From a virus, in IMG/VR virus record IMGVR_UViG_3300023202_000034, positions 8,965 through 72,964 of that record: 64,000 bases of DNA. One strand, written 5' to 3'. Position 1 is the first letter of the stretch. Each line of letters starts with the position of its first letter. Below the pieces are notes generated by a model. That model saw nothing but the letters and a program-made list of their open reading frames with translations, had not been told where the DNA came from and made no database searches. Below are positions 1,404 through 63,999 of this stretch, piece by piece. The translations under genes and the position numbers were made by a program.

Positions 1404-1441
1404 AAAAAAACGGTGACCAATCCCCTAAGGGACTGGCCACT
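1404..1441 (-). terminator. Rho-independent terminator after the RNAP2/Lar genes
   Basis: Minus strand GTGGCCAGTCCC-TTAG-GGGATTGGTCAC followed by a T7 run. Confidence 0.6.
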
Positions 1442-1474
1442 CAATCATTCGGCGTCCGGAGGACGCCTTAACTT

Positions 1475-1672
1475 TTACTCTTTCTTTGCTTCAGGTCGAT
1501 GCTCCCATAAGGTTATGGCCATTGAACGGCTATGACCAACTGGCCCCGTTGCACTGCACTTATTGCACATTACGTGATGCTCACAGGTATTGGGGTCTAC
1601 GTAAGACACTCTTAGATCGTCGCCGGTGCAGAACGGGCATGAGGTATTGGTAAACTTCGTAGTTTCAGGCAT
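1475..1672 (-). CDS. Lar-family (restriction alleviation) zinc-ribbon protein
   Basis: CPFC...CNKCSATGP...AITLWEHR pattern. Confidence 0.7.
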   Translation of the reverse strand: MPETTKFTNTSCPFCTGDDLRVSYVDPNTCEHHVMCNKCSATGPVGHSRSMAITLWEHRPEAKKE

Positions 1673-2162: not shown

Positions 2163-3237
2163 ACTCATCATGGATACACACAACAGGGAATGGCTTATGG
2201 CGTAGGCAGTCATTGACGACCTTGGCCAGTGCCTTCAGGTGATCAGAATCCAGTGCTTCCAGATCTGCGAAGGTCGCATCATCCAGAATCCGGATATCTG
2301 CCATCTTGCTGGTTTCATAACGGCCTTTGAGAATAGGTACCAGTTCCTTGGTAGTTGCACAGAACTGCTTCTGTTGGCTCTCACCAGTGGCACGTTCCAG
2401 TAAGATGATCTCAATGGATTTAGTAGCCCATTCCATCAGGTGGCGATCGTAGTTGCATCGACGGATCAGACTCCGTAGGACATACGCATCTATGGAGTGG
2501 ATAACATTTGCCACGTTGCTTAAGCCAGTCTCTTTACCTACGTTCTCCTTGTATCTGTAAGTAAAGGTTGCGTGATCCAGTTCGTCCACTTCAATCCGCT
2601 TCTCTACCACATCCATGACTTTCACATGGGCATGGTAGTTGTCTGGCAGTACCCAGCTGTGAGACAGGGCATAGGGTTGCCAACTTTCCAGCAGATCTTG
2701 TAGTAGCTCACAAGCTCCCGGAGCCATTTTCCACATGGCTTTGTAGAAGGCATTTAGCTCAGGAGTGTCCTCACCAAAGATCAGCTTTGGTTGTTCTTTG
2801 GAGCCATATAAAACCGTCATCGTCGCTTTCTTTACGTGATCACGCTCACTGGCAGGCAGGTGAGGTACCCACTTGCGCATGATGTTGGTGCACAGCGTGT
2901 AGGCATCAGCACGCTGGTTTGGGTTAACCAAGCCAGTAGCCTCTGCACCACTATGACAGCCTGTGGTAGCTGACATGATCTGCATCCCACTACACACCGC
3001 ATCAAAGCCAACCATGTGGCCAGTAGGTTCCCCTCTCTGAGCCTTACGGATGGCCTGCACCGCCTTGAAGTACAGCGGACGTTCCTTCCACTTACCAGTA
3101 CGGGCATGGCCCAACTGTTCCAATTGCTCAAGATTCTGTTCAGCCCACTCAATACGTGGTTCAAAGTTCTCTTTATCTAGTCCCCACTGGTTTGCTGCGT
3201 CAATCAACAAGTACTCATACCCTGTAAATTCTTGCAT
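2163..3237 (-). CDS. RNA polymerase II large subunit (N4 gp16-like), exon 1; spliced product 419 aa
   Basis: T7-type motifs A (FDAVCSGMQ), B (RDHVKKATMTVLYGS) and C (IHDE). Confidence 0.92.
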
Positions 3238-7043: not shown

Positions 7044-7499
7044 ATGGATGGGTTGTTGAAATTAGCGCGGTTTGATCGACTGGATGAAGGAGTATTTGGG
7101 AAGTTAATCTTTCCTGATGGTTGGTGGTGTTATACCGTTGAACGCCCTTGGTTGGATAATAAACCAATGGTCTCTTGTATTCCTGATGGTGTTTACTTTC
7201 TTGGTTTGAGATATTCTCCTACAGTGCAGCGGATTACCCGTGGCCGTTATAGCGAAGGATGGGAGATTCAAGATGTACCTGGTCGATCTTTTATTATGGT
7301 TCACCCCGCTAATTGGCCTACTGATCTTAATGGTTGCGTTGGTGTTGGTAAGGATTACACTGAGCTGCAAGGCAGGGATGGTAAGCTTCATAAGGCTGTT
7401 ACAGAGAGTCAGTCAACGTTTGATGAAGTAATGCGCCGATTGGAAGAGCGTAGCTCCTGGGAATTGGATATTTATACGGAAGTGGTTGAGTATCCGTAA
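7044..7499 (+). CDS. DUF5675-family protein (candidate cell-wall hydrolase)
   Basis: YTVERPWLDNKPMVSCIPDGVY...DVPGRSFIMVHPANWPTDLNGCVGVG. Confidence 0.75.
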   Translation: MDGLLKLARFDRLDEGVFGKLIFPDGWWCYTVERPWLDNKPMVSCIPDGVYFLGLRYSPTVQRITRGRYSEGWEIQDVPGRSFIMVHPANWPTDLNGCVGVGKDYTELQGRDGKLHKAVTESQSTFDEVMRRLEERSSWELDIYTEVVEYP

Positions 7500-7521
7500 G
7501 TGTGTTTATTGGTTTCTGTAT

Positions 7522-7547
7522 GAGCCCCTTATTTAGGGGCTTTTTTA
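7522..7547 (+). terminator. Rho-independent terminator
   Basis: AGCCCCT-TATTT-AGGGGCT followed by a T run. Confidence 0.7.
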
Positions 7548-7611
7548 TTTATGCAAACCAGATAAGAAATCAATATAGTCGGTGCATATTGTTTCTATTT
7601 GGAGCTGCATT

Positions 7612-34240: not shown

Positions 34241-34582
34241 TTAGCGGCTGAACAAGCTCATGTCTGATTTCTCAACAGAATCTGTTTGAGAATTGGGCAG
34301 AGGCTCGCTTGCTGCTTCTTCCGCGTCAGATTGTTCTGTTTCGTCAGCTTCAGTTGCTTTAACTTCGTCTGTATTAACGGTTTTGGGCTCAACAACCGCG
34401 TCGTCAGCACAGCTGGCAACGAAGCCTGGTGTACCTTCGGCGCATTCAACTTCGGCACTAAGGCCTGAGTCTTTGCGGCCCATGGTGAACGAGATGTTAC
34501 TCACCGGTCGGGCAACACCCTGACTGGCCAGAAACATGGCGATGGCTTCTTCAATGTCTTTTTGCTTAAGACGGATTTCCAT
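34241..34582 (-). CDS. Conserved N4-like hypothetical protein
   Basis: MEIRLKQKDIEEAI..FTMGRKDSGLSAEV, ends SLFSR; follows the resolvase. Confidence 0.7.
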   Translation of the reverse strand: MEIRLKQKDIEEAIAMFLASQGVARPVSNISFTMGRKDSGLSAEVECAEGTPGFVASCADDAVVEPKTVNTDEVKATEADETEQSDAEEAASEPLPNSQTDSVEKSDMSLFSR

Positions 34583-35186
34583 AAACGAGGTCTCTCATTT
34601 TGTCTGCGTTAACAGGGGTGGCTTGAATAAAGGGGAGGATGTTCAGGAATTCAGTGGTCTGAAGTCCTGCCTCAATAGCACCGATGGCATCAGCCATGTG
34701 CTCGGCCTTGGAGGCACTGACGGAGGTAACCCCGTTTCGTGTCACCATTGGCCAGTTAGCGTTGGGATGGAGCTTCACAGCTCGATCAATGATTTCGGCT
34801 TTGGAGGCAGTCTTACTGCCCACCGTGGCCAGTTTGACTTCAGTCGGGGTCACCTCAAAGAACTGAATACCCTGGGCACGTAAGGCACCCAGGACACCGA
34901 CACAGATGCCATAGGAAGCCATGGCTCTGGCAGACTGGCTACCCACCGGGACTTCCACGAAAACACACTGTACGTCTTGAGAAGCCAGTGCAGCCTTGAA
35001 GGCCAACTGTCTTGCTCGCTCCAGATCTTTACTGTTTTGCCTGACCGTTTTACCGGTGGCGAAATCAGGATTGATCAGATCCAGGGTGTGTACCGTCAGC
35101 TTCTTGGTTTCGGTGTCATAGTGGCCTTTGGCCAGTCCCCAATTGTTCAGGGACGGGTCGAAACCACAGACGGTTATTAAGCTCAT
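34566..35186 (-). CDS. RuvC-like Holliday junction resolvase (206 aa)
   Basis: GFDPSLNNWG, FVEVPVGSQSARAM, EHMADAIGA; start ATG 35186 with GGAG RBS, ATGA overlap with the HNH stop. Confidence 0.85.
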   Translation of the reverse strand: MSLITVCGFDPSLNNWGLAKGHYDTETKKLTVHTLDLINPDFATGKTVRQNSKDLERARQLAFKAALASQDVQCVFVEVPVGSQSARAMASYGICVGVLGALRAQGIQFFEVTPTEVKLATVGSKTASKAEIIDRAVKLHPNANWPMVTRNGVTSVSASKAEHMADAIGAIEAGLQTTEFLNILPFIQATPVNADKMRDLVYGNPS

Positions 35187-35737
35187 ACGGTACTCCAGGT
35201 TCTTCCGGACTTGATCGCACTTATTGCGGCATCTGTCACACCAAATTTGTCTGCAAACGCTCGACCCATACCACGCTTCCAATGGGGTAAGGCTGATTTA
35301 ATTTCAGCAACCTGGATTTGGGTTAGTGTTGCTTTTGCGATCGCTTCACCACGTGCTTGAGTACCGTGGTTGCAACGATCTTCAGCGTTCGATTTGACAG
35401 TATCCCAGCGAAGATTTCCTGGAGTATTGTTTTGTGCCTTACCATCGTTATGACATGCCTGAGCATCAGGAAAAGGACGTTGACCTTTGAAAGCCAGCAA
35501 TACCAATACGTGTACCGGTACCCACTTTGGTGATTCACCATCGGGCGCTACTGCAGCACGTAGGTACTTCTTACCTTTACTATTACTCAAGTTGAGCATG
35601 TGAGGTTCCGTACTTAAGCCTCCCCGACCATTACGGCTTTTGTATGATCGGATGCGTCCAAGAGAAGACGCCTCATACCCAGTAAAGCCAGGTATAGGGC
35701 GCCACTCTTCCATCCCTAATACAGAGATCAGACTCAT
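35183..35737 (-). CDS. NUMOD4-HNH homing endonuclease
   Basis: EEWRPIPGFTGYEASSLGRIRS (NUMOD4), VHVLVLLAF..CHNDGKAQNNTPGNLRW (HNH), C-terminal HTH. Confidence 0.9.
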   Translation of the reverse strand: MSLISVLGMEEWRPIPGFTGYEASSLGRIRSYKSRNGRGGLSTEPHMLNLSNSKGKKYLRAAVAPDGESPKWVPVHVLVLLAFKGQRPFPDAQACHNDGKAQNNTPGNLRWDTVKSNAEDRCNHGTQARGEAIAKATLTQIQVAEIKSALPHWKRGMGRAFADKFGVTDAAISAIKSGRTWSTV

Positions 35738-35994
35738 GACAGTTTACCGCTCTGCGGGTTGCCAACTGTGTTTGGCGGGATTTCCAGGTACCCTTCTTCA
35801 AAGGCCTTCTTGGGAGACCAGGAATGGTACTCATCCGACGTGCCTTTGTAATAAATCACATGGTAACCGTCAGCCGAGGAGTCGACTTTCCCGGGTAACG
35901 GGAAGGGACGTACATTGGCTACAAAGTCCCCCAATGTCATGGGCTCTGCGTGAACCTGTTTGATTGACTGGTAGCGTTTCAGATTGCCGCTCAT
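35734..35994 (-). CDS. Conserved hypothetical phage protein
   Basis: KQVHAEPMT..GYHVIY..SWSPKKAFEEGY. Confidence 0.7.
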   Translation of the reverse strand: MSGNLKRYQSIKQVHAEPMTLGDFVANVRPFPLPGKVDSSADGYHVIYYKGTSDEYHSWSPKKAFEEGYLEIPPNTVGNPQSGKLS

Positions 35995-36326
35995 ACGATT
36001 GGTTTCTCCCCATTCAGTTGAGCGTACAGTCTATACCCTTCCAGCTCCCACAGTCGCTTGCTGACCTGTTCCCGGGCATTACGCTCAGCAATCGTCCGTC
36101 CCAGCTCTGCATCAAAGTTTTCTGGTGATACACAGGCACTGTGACCGGTTGCCAGGTAAAACTTCTGATCCAGATAGGCATGACAGAACGTGCTAGTCGT
36201 TCCGGCAGGCTGAGAAAAGAAAAAAGATACACGACTCATCATGGTAAAGATGTGGTCTACCGTAACCCGGGGAGCAGTCAGACCCTTGTCCTGAATCTCC
36301 TGCTCTACTGCTTGATCGTTCGACAT
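35991..36326 (-). CDS. Phage Gp49/Gp66-family protein
   Basis: LTAPRVT..GHSACVSPENFDAELGR..LWELEGY. Confidence 0.85.
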   Translation of the reverse strand: MSNDQAVEQEIQDKGLTAPRVTVDHIFTMMSRVSFFFSQPAGTTSTFCHAYLDQKFYLATGHSACVSPENFDAELGRTIAERNAREQVSKRLWELEGYRLYAQLNGEKPIV

Positions 36327-36384
36327 CGGGTTTCCTCAGTCGGTGAATGTCAGGGGCTGATATCAGCCCCCGTGGATTCAGAGA

Positions 36385-37146
36385 TTACTGAGCAAACAGA
36401 CTGGTTGGCTGCGCCTTATTGGCCGTGGCCGCAGCTGCCATTGGGGCACCTGCTTTGGGTGCGCCGGCGGTGCCTGAAACACCTTTGGAACGATCACGAA
36501 CTTGACCGGCCCACTTCTGTTCCCAGGTGTTGTAGAACACGGCTTCTGTAGCGCCACCCTGTATTTCCATAACAGTCTTCTTGTCATGGTCTTCCAGTGC
36601 ACAGAAGAACTTATCGATCTCGTTCTTCTCGATGGTTTCGCCCGTTGCGTGATACTCACCGTCAGTACCCTTCTGGGACTTGTCTTCAATCTGCTTGAAG
36701 ATAGCGACGTACACTTCTTTGCCCAGCAGATCCATCAGCATATCCACAGAAGTAGGTACTTCTGCTTTGGCTTCTGGGCTGTAGAGATTGATGGTTTTCT
36801 TCTCAGTGTCCATCGCGGCAATTTCCTGGCCGGTGGTCAGCTGGCACAGGCTGTTGGCCAGGTTGAAGCCAGGCAGATACTGCTTGTCACCGTTCTTGTC
36901 GATGAAGAAGTTCTTATTGCCTTTGGCATCACCGGAAGCCATCCACAAGGTTTGGCGGACTTCACGACCGGCGCTGGTCATCAGGTGCAGTTTCAGGCCC
37001 AGGGCGCCACCAGCAGACTTCTGCAGGTAAGCCAGGGTAATGGTGGTCTTGTAGATCGCGGTATCCAGTGGGCTAAAGTCACCGCCTACAACGTCCTTTT
37101 CGCCTTGAATTTCATCAGAGGTAGTCAGGTTAGAGAGAAGGCTCAT
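36385..37146 (-). CDS. Single-stranded DNA-binding protein (N4 gp45-like)
   Basis: KNGDKQYLPGF..NEIDKFF, C-terminal SLFA; synteny. Confidence 0.85.
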   Translation of the reverse strand: MSLLSNLTTSDEIQGEKDVVGGDFSPLDTAIYKTTITLAYLQKSAGGALGLKLHLMTSAGREVRQTLWMASGDAKGNKNFFIDKNGDKQYLPGFNLANSLCQLTTGQEIAAMDTEKKTINLYSPEAKAEVPTSVDMLMDLLGKEVYVAIFKQIEDKSQKGTDGEYHATGETIEKNEIDKFFCALEDHDKKTVMEIQGGATEAVFYNTWEQKWAGQVRDRSKGVSGTAGAPKAGAPMAAAATANKAQPTSLFAQ

Positions 37147-37205
37147 AATGATATTCCTTTGGTTTCAATGATTTCGGGTTTTGGTTTTGTGAGTGGTGCC
37201 GGGGG

Positions 37206-37568
37206 TTACCCGGCTACCTTGTCGACACGTTGCTGAGCATGAGAATCGGTGTAGCTCAGGGAGTGGTAACGCTTCGACAGTTTGGTGATGTTAGCTTCCA
37301 GGGTTTCTTCCCGGGTAATACCGAGGCGGGACCGCAATCCTTCCATGTAGAATTCCAGGTCACCCAGTTCCTCAATGACGTTGTCACGATCCAATGGCTT
37401 GCGATAGATCACGGCTTTCTTGACCGCATCCAGCAATTCACCGGATTCGCCGGCAATGCCTACCGCCATGTGGAGGTTGTGGGCGTCGTCACCGGTCAGT
37501 TCCCGGGCAATGGTGTCACCGTATTTGGCCAGGGCTTGAACCAATTCAGGATGGGTAATCTGGGTCAT
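37206..37568 (-). CDS. MazG-like nucleotide pyrophosphohydrolase
   Basis: GIAGESGELLDAVKK..EELGDLEFY..NITKLSKRY. Confidence 0.85.
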   Translation of the reverse strand: MTQITHPELVQALAKYGDTIARELTGDDAHNLHMAVGIAGESGELLDAVKKAVIYRKPLDRDNVIEELGDLEFYMEGLRSRLGITREETLEANITKLSKRYHSLSYTDSHAQQRVDKVAG

Positions 37569-61945: not shown

Positions 61946-62779
61946 TCATGCTGCTTCCTTTTCTTCAGTTAGCTTGGTCAGGTGGGTTTTACACTCCTGC
62001 ATGATGTCTGTTTGAGTGCAGTTGTTCTTCAGTCCCATGGGGTGTGCCCAGTCCGGGTAGAAGATATCCAGCTCAGCTCCGATTTTTACCGTGTCATGTT
62101 GGATTTCTGGCAGCTCTTGCCATTGCATGGATTTGATCAGCTCCTGGTTTACCCACTCAACAATGTCCAGCTTGTTTCGGATCAGCAGGTAGATTGCATC
62201 GTGGATCATGGCCACGGGTTTGATATCCAGTTTGTAGGGCGAGGCCCAGACCTTTTCCATGAATTCGTTCAATGCTCGGTTGGTCAGCAAGCCATAAGAC
62301 TGTCCCAAAGCGTTACCCGCGGTACGCCCTTCAGCTTTCGCCTCATAGGGCGTACTTCGATGATTGCGCAAGGTAGAAGATAACAGTGGGGTTCTGACAC
62401 GCAGCCCAAAGGCTACAGTCACATACCCGTCAATGGCAGCTTGATCCAGCTTGGCTTGTACCCATTCATCACTCACCTTGTAAAGTTCGTGATAGTTGGT
62501 TTCAATACGTTCCGCCTCATCTTCCGGGAAACCCAGGTTGTTCATCAGAGTGAACTTGGTGCCCTGATAGGTCAGAGCAAACGTCGGGTTCTTTGAGCGG
62601 CTACGAATTGGGTCCAGGTCTGGGTCCTTCTTCATGGCGTGACTCAGTTCCGGGGTGATTTCCTCGTAAGGAAATAACTCAGGCCAGTAACTGAAAGCCC
62701 GCAAACCATGACCATCGAAGCCCGGAGTGTTCGGAAGCTGATCAATGTTGACGTTGTCTTCAGAGTTGATTTTGAGCAT
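61946..62779 (-). CDS. DNA polymerase (family A), C-terminal chain
   Basis: FDGHGLRA, motif B RSRSKNPTFALTYQG, motif C IHDAIY; own GGAG RBS. Confidence 0.9.
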   Translation of the reverse strand: MLKINSEDNVNIDQLPNTPGFDGHGLRAFSYWPELFPYEEITPELSHAMKKDPDLDPIRSRSKNPTFALTYQGTKFTLMNNLGFPEDEAERIETNYHELYKVSDEWVQAKLDQAAIDGYVTVAFGLRVRTPLLSSTLRNHRSTPYEAKAEGRTAGNALGQSYGLLTNRALNEFMEKVWASPYKLDIKPVAMIHDAIYLLIRNKLDIVEWVNQELIKSMQWQELPEIQHDTVKIGAELDIFYPDWAHPMGLKNNCTQTDIMQECKTHLTKLTEEKEAA

Positions 62780-63299
62780 TGATCTTCTCCAAATTGCTTA
62801 ATGCAGTCCTGCGACGTTTCCGACTCACCTCTGCCTTCCACTCATCGGAGAGTCCGTCCTTTTCAGCTTGGATTCGTAACATACGGTTCAAGGTGTTTGG
62901 GTGGTTCCCTACTTCAGTGGCTAAATCTGACACAAGTTCTCCGTCTAAAGCGCGCCTCAACATAGCCCTCTTCACATCGACATGGACAAACCCTTTACGT
63001 AGACCAGATTCCAATGCGTGTTGGGCAGTGTGTTCAGCCGTACACCACTCAAGATTGCTCCAATGGTTGTGGAGCTTATTCCCATCTTTGTGGTTCACCT
63101 GAGGGTGGTTATAGGGATTTGGGAGGAAATGAGTAGCGACCAGGCGGTGAACACTGCACTGGTCACCGTCTAATGTGACGATCAAGTAACCGTTATTGTT
63201 TTTCCGTGGGAGTAACTCCCTGTCCGTGTAACCGGAGTGGATGCTTCCATCCTCAGCTACTCGGTACATCTCGTGGTGTGCGATGGGTAAGTTTTTCAT
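62760..63299 (-). CDS. HNH homing endonuclease splitting the DNA polymerase gene
   Basis: VHRLVATHFLPNP..VNHKDGNKLHNHWSNLEW; C-terminal HTH; AGGAG RBS before ATG 63299. Confidence 0.9.
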   Translation of the reverse strand: MKNLPIAHHEMYRVAEDGSIHSGYTDRELLPRKNNNGYLIVTLDGDQCSVHRLVATHFLPNPYNHPQVNHKDGNKLHNHWSNLEWCTAEHTAQHALESGLRKGFVHVDVKRAMLRRALDGELVSDLATEVGNHPNTLNRMLRIQAEKDGLSDEWKAEVSRKRRRTALSNLEKINAQNQL

Positions 63300-63999
63300 A
63301 AAGGACATCTCCTGTTATTTGCTCACCATCATATTCTACAATAGTGTCACCTAAGATTGTTTGGGTTTTTCCGTTAATGGTTACTTCGTACTGCCGATCC
63401 CCTGAGTACACTCTGAGCTTATTGGGGTCTTTGGTGGTGAGCGCACTGATGTAGTCTTCCAATGAGTTGAAATCCGCACCGGCAAACAGCCATCCGTCTG
63501 GCGCCTGAAAGCAGTACTTGATCAGCTTGCCGTAGGTGGAGCCGGCTGGCATGTTCTGCAGGTTTGGATTGGAACTACTCAAACGACCAGAGACAGTGCC
63601 TCCCAGATTGAATGAACCGTGCAGGTAAACAACACCATCACCTTTGTCGATGGCTTGCTCAAATGCCGGGATAAACGTTGAGAGAATCTTCTCGGCTTTT
63701 GCCCAGGCACAAAGTGCTGAGAGTACATCTATGTAGTCCTGGTTTTTGGTGTGGTTTAACAACTTCTTGATGGTTTTACCACCCGTCGCTGGTTGCTTGG
63801 TGTCCGTGAGATCGATGACCGGTAGCTGCATGTCTTCATACAGCAGTTTCTGCAGTTGGGGCCCTGAGTTGGGGTTGAACACCATACGTTTATTTACACG
63901 GTATTCATTCCAATCTTTGGGCAGAATCTTGTCCGGATTCTTGGCTTTACCTTTGCGGTCAGCGTAGTCTTTCTTCCAAGCCAGTAGAGTTAATCGGTC
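63253..63999 (-). CDS. DNA polymerase (family A), N-terminal chain; continues beyond the window
   Basis: FNPNSGPQL, GTVSGRLSSSNPNLQN, motif A GADFNSLE; frame open to the window edge. Confidence 0.92.
   Translation of the reverse strand, partial: DRLTLLAWKKDYADRKGKAKNPDKILPKDWNEYRVNKRMVFNPNSGPQLQKLLYEDMQLPVIDLTDTKQPATGGKTIKKLLNHTKNQDYIDVLSALCAWAKAEKILSTFIPAFEQAIDKGDGVVYLHGSFNLGGTVSGRLSSSNPNLQNMPAGSTYGKLIKYCFQAPDGWLFAGADFNSLEDYISALTTKDPNKLRVYSGDRQYEVTINGKTQTILGDTIVEYDGEQITGDVLYEKLTHRTPRDVPSS

Follow-up and report, generated by a model that had tools for sequence, protein, structure and literature searches.

Probable capture of a phage resolvase gene's start by a NUMOD4-HNH homing cassette that brings a replacement N-terminus

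Why do two adjoining phage genes, one for an HNH endonuclease and the other for a Holliday junction resolvase, begin with nearly the same amino acids? The question is raised by the N4-like virus record IMGVR_UViG_3300023202_000034 (72,964 bp), of which we analysed a stretch of 64,000 nucleotides (nt), hereafter the window; it also contains a 3633-amino-acid open reading frame (ORF) for a virion RNA polymerase. The endonuclease gene (an I-HmuI-like NUMOD4-HNH ORF of 184 amino acids, 35183..35737, minus strand) lies between an 86-amino-acid ORF (35734..35994, minus; PHROG 18865, to which PHROG assigns no function) and the gene for a RuvC-like, N4 gp46-like resolvase of 206 amino acids (34566..35186, minus). 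Both joints are ATGA overlaps that can be read from the sequence: the stop of the 86-amino-acid ORF overlaps the HNH start at 35734..35737, and the HNH stop overlaps the resolvase start at 35183..35186. We found no promoter- or terminator-like sites between the three ORFs. We propose that the HNH gene is very probably a free-standing homing cassette that has lodged within the first codons of the resolvase gene, is translated from the resolvase's start, and carries a replacement for the N-terminus that it has severed.

The HNH ORF starts ATG AGT CTG ATC TCT GTA TTA GGG ATG GAA GAG TGG (MSLISVLGMEEW), and the resolvase ORF starts, at 35186, ATG AGC TTA ATA ACC GTC TGT GGT TTC GAC CCG TCC (MSLITVCGFDPS). 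We will refer to the first nine codons of the HNH ORF (MSLISVLGM, 35711..35737, minus) as the leader and to the first nine codons of the resolvase ORF (MSLITVCGF, 35160..35186, minus) as the stub. An earlier note on this DNA had called attention to the likeness between MSLISVLGM, just before the NUMOD4 motif, and MSLITVCGF-DPS, and the sequence bears it out: six of the nine residues are identical (M, S, L, I, V, and G), and all five of the shared codons other than Met differ synonymously (AGT/AGC, CTG/TTA, ATC/ATA, GTA/GTC, and GGG/GGT). Overall, leader and stub differ at 12 of 27 nucleotides. As a control for chance, we compared the N-terminal 9-mers of the 114 ATG-initiated ORFs of at least 80 amino acids in the window (6441 pairs). 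Only the HNH/resolvase pair has six identities, and eight pairs have five. Furthermore, among 80 HNH relatives from IMG/VR, MSLISVLG was not found at the locus of any other gene. Such a leader occurs only in the nearest two HNH homologues, P0001 (90% identical, MSLIPVMGM) and P0002 (71% identical, MSQPIPVLGM).

The uninterrupted allele that the earlier note had predicted (...VLGMDPS) exists. The IMG/VR contig L009 lacks the HNH gene and encodes a resolvase that is 86% identical to the window's; its 5' end reads GTG AGT CTG ATC CCC GTG CTG GGG ATG GAC CCG TCC (MSLIPVLGMDPS). Upstream of it is a homologous 87-amino-acid ORF that overlaps the resolvase start as GTGA. So, the proposal that the HNH gene inherited the resolvase's translational coupling to the upstream ORF holds as well, with GTGA in L009 and ATGA in the window. 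By blastn, positions 37300..35709 of the window correspond to 944..2529 of L009, and positions 35159..34656 correspond to 2528..3031. This places the insert (35160..35710, minus, about 551 nt) between resolvase codon 9 and the codon for Asp (GAC at 35159..35157, minus), with an ambiguity of 5 nt because ATGGA is common to both sides. The break thus falls just before the catalytic Asp, as had been claimed. The insert consists of the HNH body from codon 10, the HNH stop, and the stub, which meets the resident gene at the catalytic-Asp codon.

Comparison with L009 also indicates which of the two starts is the original one. Between the leader and L009 there are 6 differences in 27 nucleotides (21 of 27 identical), which is the background level, as expected if the HNH gene was fused in frame to the resolvase's own first nine codons. 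The stub differs at 13 of 27, against 14 of the 90 nt that follow it. Among the 10 closest resolvase homologues (from the 120 best), eight start with MSLIP[VI][LM]GMDPS. One of the other two is a truncated call, and the last, P0087, begins MSLISVCGFDPS, which resembles the window's stub, so that its allele is a candidate source of the stub. The relatives of the HNH gene fit the same pattern: the leader of P0001, MSLIPVMGM, is the uninterrupted resolvase N-terminus of P0090-92 (MSLIPVMGMDPS), and the leader of P0002, MSQPIPVLGM, is the uninterrupted resolvase N-terminus of P0108.

Both proteins can be identified. In the HNH protein, Pfam finds NUMOD4 (PF07463) at residues 10-41 (38.9 bits, cutoff 23.4, 1.1e-9), two PHROG HNH families match at 2.7e-35 and 1.3e-33, and phmmer aligns I-HmuI (PDB 1U3E) to residues 11-135, across the HNH motif, at E = 7.2e-6 and low sequence identity. 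H96, D98, N104, N108, and N117 are invariant in an alignment of eight HNH homologues; on this alignment the catalytic His, Asn, Asn motif is present, and the enzyme looks intact from its NUMOD4 motif, its conserved HNH residues, and its resemblance to I-HmuI. The resolvase matches PHROG 159 at 3.3e-41. It has no Pfam match at E ≤ 0.01, and PF02075 matches a few of its homologues. We found 3009 homologues at E ≤ 1e-20, and 316 phage records contain one. The G-x-DPS motif is intact in the window's resolvase, and 116 of the 120 best homologues, as called, have it too; we take its Asp to be the counterpart of the first catalytic Asp of E. coli RuvC. The window's resolvase is also longer than its closest homologues (206 versus 190-192 amino acids, with the homologues covering about 91% of it), and a C-terminal tail of about 14-19 residues (near 34566..34620) has no counterpart in these relatives.

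The same arrangement is found in other phages. The best HNH matches among GenBank phages lie directly 5' of the resolvase gene, in Burkholderia phage HN01, Erwinia phage Rexella, Achromobacter phage JWAlpha, and Pseudomonas phage nickie (which is not N4-like), and all four carry the ATGA overlap; among the loci that we compared, the overlap is found in L001-L004 and in the metagenome contig L010. Presence of the HNH gene is polymorphic: the window, Rexella, HN01, and JWAlpha have it, and L009, Frozen, HN03, and phiAxp-3 do not. Its sporadic occurrence among the 316 resolvase-bearing phage records is a distribution typical of a selfish element.

Pairs of related genomes with and without the HNH gene show how much of the target was captured. 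In Rexella, as compared to Frozen, which belongs to the same species, the insert is 536 nt and the captured part is ATG CTC ATT CCA GT, or about five codons, with no differences in 14 nt. In HN01, as compared to HN03, only the ATG was captured; the two are alike upstream to the ATG, with five mismatches in the last 40 nt. JWAlpha and phiAxp-3 also share only the ATG, in the common context ...aagaagtaagcc ATG, with the junction at the ATG, and their stubs and flanks are too diverged for a count of differences. L010 was the one informative locus in a scan of metagenomes (L011 and L012 are distant relatives and were left out): it has captured eight codons, MLIPVLGM, relative to the uninterrupted MLIPVLGMDPS of P0189, and its new resolvase start after the ATGA is MKIPVLGMDPS. 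A tblastn match of HN01 that seemed to extend to residue 1 turned out to be a spurious extension into sequence outside the ORF (VAVQEVV), and HN01 shares only the ATG. We also considered V-C-G as a signature of cassette-borne stubs (the window and HN01 both have the Cys) and dropped it, as Cys is frequent in homologues of undefined HNH status.

Is this peculiar to resolvase genes? A search of IMG/VR with the window's HNH protein alone as the query found no relative; with an alignment as the query, we gathered 80 loci, of which 65 are unique and complete. In 18 of these 65, the HNH ORF overlaps a downstream ORF via NTGA. At L044, the HNH ORF starts ATG ACC TAC ACG CAA GAG GTT TGG (MTYTQEVW), with MTYTQ captured, and the 92-amino-acid gene that follows the ATGA starts ATG ACG TAT ACT TGT GTT TGG (MTYTCVW; the stub is MTYTCVWD). 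Among the corresponding HNH-less loci (the best 24 of 36), 23 read ...gagctttga(c/t)c ATG ACC TA(C/T), and these encode MTYTQ(V/I)W or, in two cases, MTYSQVW. At L020, the HNH ORF has captured 13 codons (MSTVRKLPLAPDD) from the start of a gene for a PD-(D/E)XK nuclease; L135, a relative that lacks the HNH gene (95% identical), reads MSTVRKLPLAPDDRAKVL, and the cassette supplies the stub MNRSLHHLPLAAGDGAKVL via ATGA. For L030, there was no relative that lacks the HNH gene and covers the N-terminus among those we found. Across the start-capture loci that we compared, then, the HNH ORF starts at the target's start codon and includes between 0 and 13 more codons of the target, and its stop overlaps a new start, after which the beginning of the target gene is repeated in a foreign version.

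If the HNH gene has taken over the resolvase's start, it should be translated from it. Instead, the leader might be a dead relic, with the HNH protein made from Met9 (ATG GAA GAG TGG) and the eight upstream codons a mere remnant. We think this is unlikely. Codon 9 does coincide with the usual start of the HNH family (the HNH proteins of HN01, JWAlpha, and nickie begin M-x-E-x-W, and residue 2 of I-HmuI aligns with residue 11 of the window's protein), and a junction at the ATGGA microhomology would put the leader in frame automatically, with no need for selection. However, no sequence resembling a Shine-Dalgarno site stands at a usable distance before Met9, where GGG abuts the ATG, while the first ATG has the inherited ATGA coupling. 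The leader is also open and in frame in P0001, P0002, and L010. Finally, the captured ATG is the sole available start in three loci: in Rexella and L044 no other start codon lies between it and the NUMOD4 motif, so that these two HNH genes must use the captured start, and in L020 it is the only start that the HNH ORF could use.

Where did the stub come from? The earlier note had described it as a start that was rebuilt and recoded. That a replacement start is supplied through the ATGA overlap is correct, and what does not stand is rebuilding in place: the stub arrived with the cassette. The evidence is from two pairs of nearly identical genomes. Between Rexella and Frozen, the stub differs at 7 of 14 nucleotides, with amino-acid changes among the differences, while there are 6 differing positions in about 900 nt of flank (about 1%). 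Between HN01 and HN03, a patch with 13 differences in 30 nt is followed by 11 differences in 500 nt. As the patches are far above the divergence of their flanks (about 1-2%), the stubs must have been imported rather than have diverged where they are. In Rexella and Frozen, the remaining mismatches are also clustered around the insert: they lie only 16-133 nt upstream and 14 and 41 nt downstream, and the next one is over 750 nt away. Clusters of single-nucleotide differences like these are what co-conversion of the flanks would leave behind; this sign of homing comes from Rexella/Frozen and HN01/HN03 and not from the window itself.

This is also a reason to doubt that the first nine codons were duplicated in place as the target site, with the downstream copy diverging synonymously afterwards under selection against re-cutting or against deletion between repeats. 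A duplication would account for why the stub keeps the MSLI that is typical of its lineage and differs mostly at synonymous sites, and at L020 the two blastn arms overlap by 21 nt, which does look like one. Yet the stub differences in both pairs are too many to have arisen since the flanks diverged. Also, L114 (~1201), an L044-type locus without the HNH gene, natively has the 30-nt "recoded" allele MTYTCVWDAM of the L044 cassette, so such stubs are ordinary foreign alleles. We consider in-place duplication quite improbable. (The L114 allele itself could be either the native allele of the donor lineage or a resistant allele that was kept after loss of the HNH gene.)

Enzymes of the I-HmuI type are classically intron-encoded, and the insert separates codon 9 from the Asp codon so precisely that its excision would give an intact protein. 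Could the HNH gene be in a self-splicing intron or an intein-like element, with splicing restoring MSLISVLGM-DPS and the MSLITVCGF start irrelevant? This we rate as very improbable. A search with Rfam over 34400..36400 at E ≤ 10 found no group I or group II intron, and hence no ribozyme core, with only three matches at the level of chance; and about 524 of the 551 inserted nucleotides are HNH coding sequence, which leaves about 27 nt and no room for such a core. An intein should continue without a stop, whereas the HNH ORF ends in TGA and the frame of the host gene shifts at the ATGA, and Pfam finds no Hint or other intein domain. Nor would splicing explain why a second start and a full N-terminal stub are conserved in every lineage. 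The locus is not a split gene either: what lies upstream is a fragment of 8-9 codons that now belongs to the HNH ORF, and the downstream ORF has a complete N-terminus. That two adjoining ORFs merely happen to start alike, short N-termini in MS... being common, is already refuted and has practically no probability left, given that one ORF pair in 6441 reaches six identities, that the intact allele exists at the orthologous site, and that independent lineages and other target genes show the pattern again.

To explain these observations by start capture, we propose the following steps. The HNH enzyme would cut alleles without the HNH gene within the conserved stretch that encodes ...G-(M/F)-D-P-S. 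Repair of the break would copy the HNH gene together with its stub, and on the 3' side, recombination would be resolved within the resolvase coding sequence. The broken end on the 5' side would retain the leftover first codons of the target, which become joined in frame to the HNH gene; in the window, this join may have been made at the microhomology ATGGA, which is common to the target's Met9-Asp10 codons and the HNH gene's own Met-Glu codons. The new allele would be protected from re-cutting by its split target site, and from deletion by the divergence of the stub, which leaves no homology between repeats.

As for expression, the cassette seems to have no translation-initiation region of its own. 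The HNH protein would be translated from the resolvase's original start, coupled to the upstream ORF through ATGA, and would begin MSLISVLGMEEWR. The 3' end of the cassette appears to be a substitute for what was severed: a GGAG, an ATG within the HNH gene's own stop, and nine foreign resolvase codons. Re-initiation at the ATGA, aided by the GGAG, would give full-length resolvase with MSLITVCGF-DPS at its head (beginning MSLITVCGFDPSLNNWGLAK). This Shine-Dalgarno-like GGAG (35193..35196, minus) is 6 nt upstream of the resolvase's ATG, inside the 3' end of the HNH gene, and it is composed of the conserved C-terminal Trp codon and the codon that follows. HN01, Rexella, JWAlpha, nickie, and L010 likewise have TGG followed by a purine ahead of their ATGA.

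Several findings weigh against start capture or limit how far it can be taken. First, the Pfam HNH_3 score of the window's protein is 21.0 bits, under the curated cutoff of 24.8. Second, the HNH protein of the window, like that of L010, might in principle be translated from Met9. Third, L044 and L020 were picked among the 80 IMG/VR loci because the leader resembled the downstream N-terminus, so the rate of such hits is biased. Fourth, a comparison of L023 to its HNH-less relative L144 shows no captured leader, at a junction that is too diverged to read, and the leader-fused form of the HNH gene is not universal. Fifth, the divergence between lineages is similar for the HNH proteins (44-50% identity) and for the resolvases (38-53%), and so the deeper history could be one of long vertical co-descent with frequent loss. 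Good support for a recent gain of the HNH gene comes only from Rexella/Frozen and HN01/HN03.

A more general form of start capture is that NUMOD4-HNH genes include a widespread "start-capturing" class, which lacks initiation signals of its own, invades the first codons of essentially any conserved phage gene, and pays with an imported N-terminus. We put this forward tentatively and would not be surprised if it proved too broad. If it is true, then the left junction records the position of the cut, and each jump to a new lineage may add a captured stub. Variable N-terminal extensions before the E-x-W-x-P-I-P-G motif are common in the HNH family, and under this scenario they would be a fossil record of former target genes. 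At L020, a 20-residue linker (SEPNDDQQVIAIGGSNAAAQ, 1441..1500) lies between the 13 captured codons and NUMOD4; this linker and similar extensions could be stubs that were captured in earlier hosts.

Other copies of the HNH gene occur in metagenomes. It is found at about 87-100% identity on contigs from three other studies, and record 9 of run X3 covers both junctions; no RNA run was among those listed with a match. In four sequencing runs, no contig had a joint that skips the insert, although contigs drop rare variants and variants without the HNH gene may exist. The 3' half of the HNH gene (35096..35570 of the window) is matched at 98-100% by short contigs from two other metagenome studies (runs X2 and X4), in which the contigs with flanking genes are only about 79-90% identical. 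The HNH and flank contigs are not linked; this contrast hints that the cassette moves between genetic backgrounds. The nearest source-named resolvase homologues without the HNH gene, P0088 and P0119, are labelled Marinobacter and are on contigs of 329 and 367 kb. The labels are a hint as to the host genus, and these contigs are possibly N4-like sequence within bacterial assemblies.

Two resolvases in this comparison are annotated from the wrong start. The HN01 coding sequence (L001 2052..2615) is annotated from a GTG that is 105 nt downstream, and starting at the ATG of the ATGA gives a full N-terminus. The phiAxp-3 coding sequence (L013 795..1355) is annotated from 942, and the ATG just past the ssb stop gives a full N-terminus. 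As annotated, both proteins lose the catalytic Asp; the full starts restore G-x-DPS.

The phage has other HNH genes. A second HNH ORF (62760..63308, minus, 182 amino acids, HNH_3 29.8 bits) splits a gene for a family-A DNA polymerase (61946..63999 in the window). The upstream polymerase fragment (63253 to beyond 63999) matches positions 27-180 of the DNA_pol_A profile, the downstream ORF of 277 amino acids (61946..62779) matches positions 206-360, and the HNH ORF overlaps both, which makes this a classic "gene in pieces." A third HNH_3 ORF (161 amino acids, 45.6 bits; L016 1468..1953) is in the same genome (G000:C1, near 7118-7603) and outside the window, between an AAA-ATPase gene and a 275-amino-acid ORF. 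With HNH ORFs at the resolvase gene, at the polymerase gene, and in L016, there are at least three HNH genes in this phage.

Homing endonuclease genes have been thought to survive in coding sequences only by way of introns, inteins, or split proteins that reassemble. Start capture with a substitute N-terminus is a new form of free-standing ("intronless") homing and would be a third route: when the target site is close to a gene's 5' end, the element appropriates the start and provides its host with a spare one. Full-text literature searches, with subscription journals largely outside their scope, turned up no endonuclease described as using its target's start codon while supplying a new N-terminus for the target. 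If we are correct, then conserved phage genes can exchange their first codons horizontally within a selfish cassette. More practically, the natural pairs of alleles with and without the HNH gene define the insertion site to within a few nucleotides and should be handy for cleavage and homing experiments, and the truncated resolvases of HN01 and phiAxp-3 and the HNH ORFs with odd leaders can now be read correctly.

How does this compare to known systems? The closest enzyme is I-HmuI, whose gene resides in a group I intron that interrupts a phage gene for DNA polymerase. It shares with the window's HNH protein a NUMOD4-like N-terminal strand region and the HNH motif; it differs in that Rfam detected no intron around the window's HNH gene, and the sequence identity is low. 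The closest elements in lifestyle are the free-standing homing endonucleases of T4-like phages (SegF, SegG, MobE, and others), which are also beside or within conserved phage genes, are sporadic among relatives, and spread by double-strand-break repair with co-conversion of flanking markers. Their starts are reported often to overlap the upstream stop (UAAUGA for mobE/nrdA), with 5 of 12 T4 free-standing endonuclease ORFs overlapping the upstream ORF (PMC2988022). In contrast, the window's HNH gene is fused in frame to the first codons of its target, uses the target's start codon, and also delivers a replacement 5' coding end, which the passages seen in that source do not describe. The JWAlpha paper, in the portion that we consulted, only annotates NUMOD4/HNH_3 genes after ssb (PMC3915230).

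Two other kinds of insertion into coding sequence are similar in part. The "hidden HNH" of ShiLan, in actinophage methylase genes, is an actively homing insertion that is neither an intron nor an intein, but it is reported to be read through within the host protein, with the HNH in another frame and an internal GTG (PMC11855218). At the resolvase locus, the HNH ORF is at the 5' end, keeps the frame of the host gene, and terminates, and the host gene restarts from the carried stub. Split genes, such as nrdA/mobE of Aeromonas phage Aeh1, T4 gene 39/60 with mobA, and gene 43 of phage 25, are insertions in coding sequence without an intron or intein that supply an upstream stop and a downstream start (PMC2988022); both halves are made separately and reassemble. 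At start-capture loci, the upstream fragment of 1-13 codons goes to the endonuclease instead, and the host protein would remain a single full-length chain with a new N-terminus.

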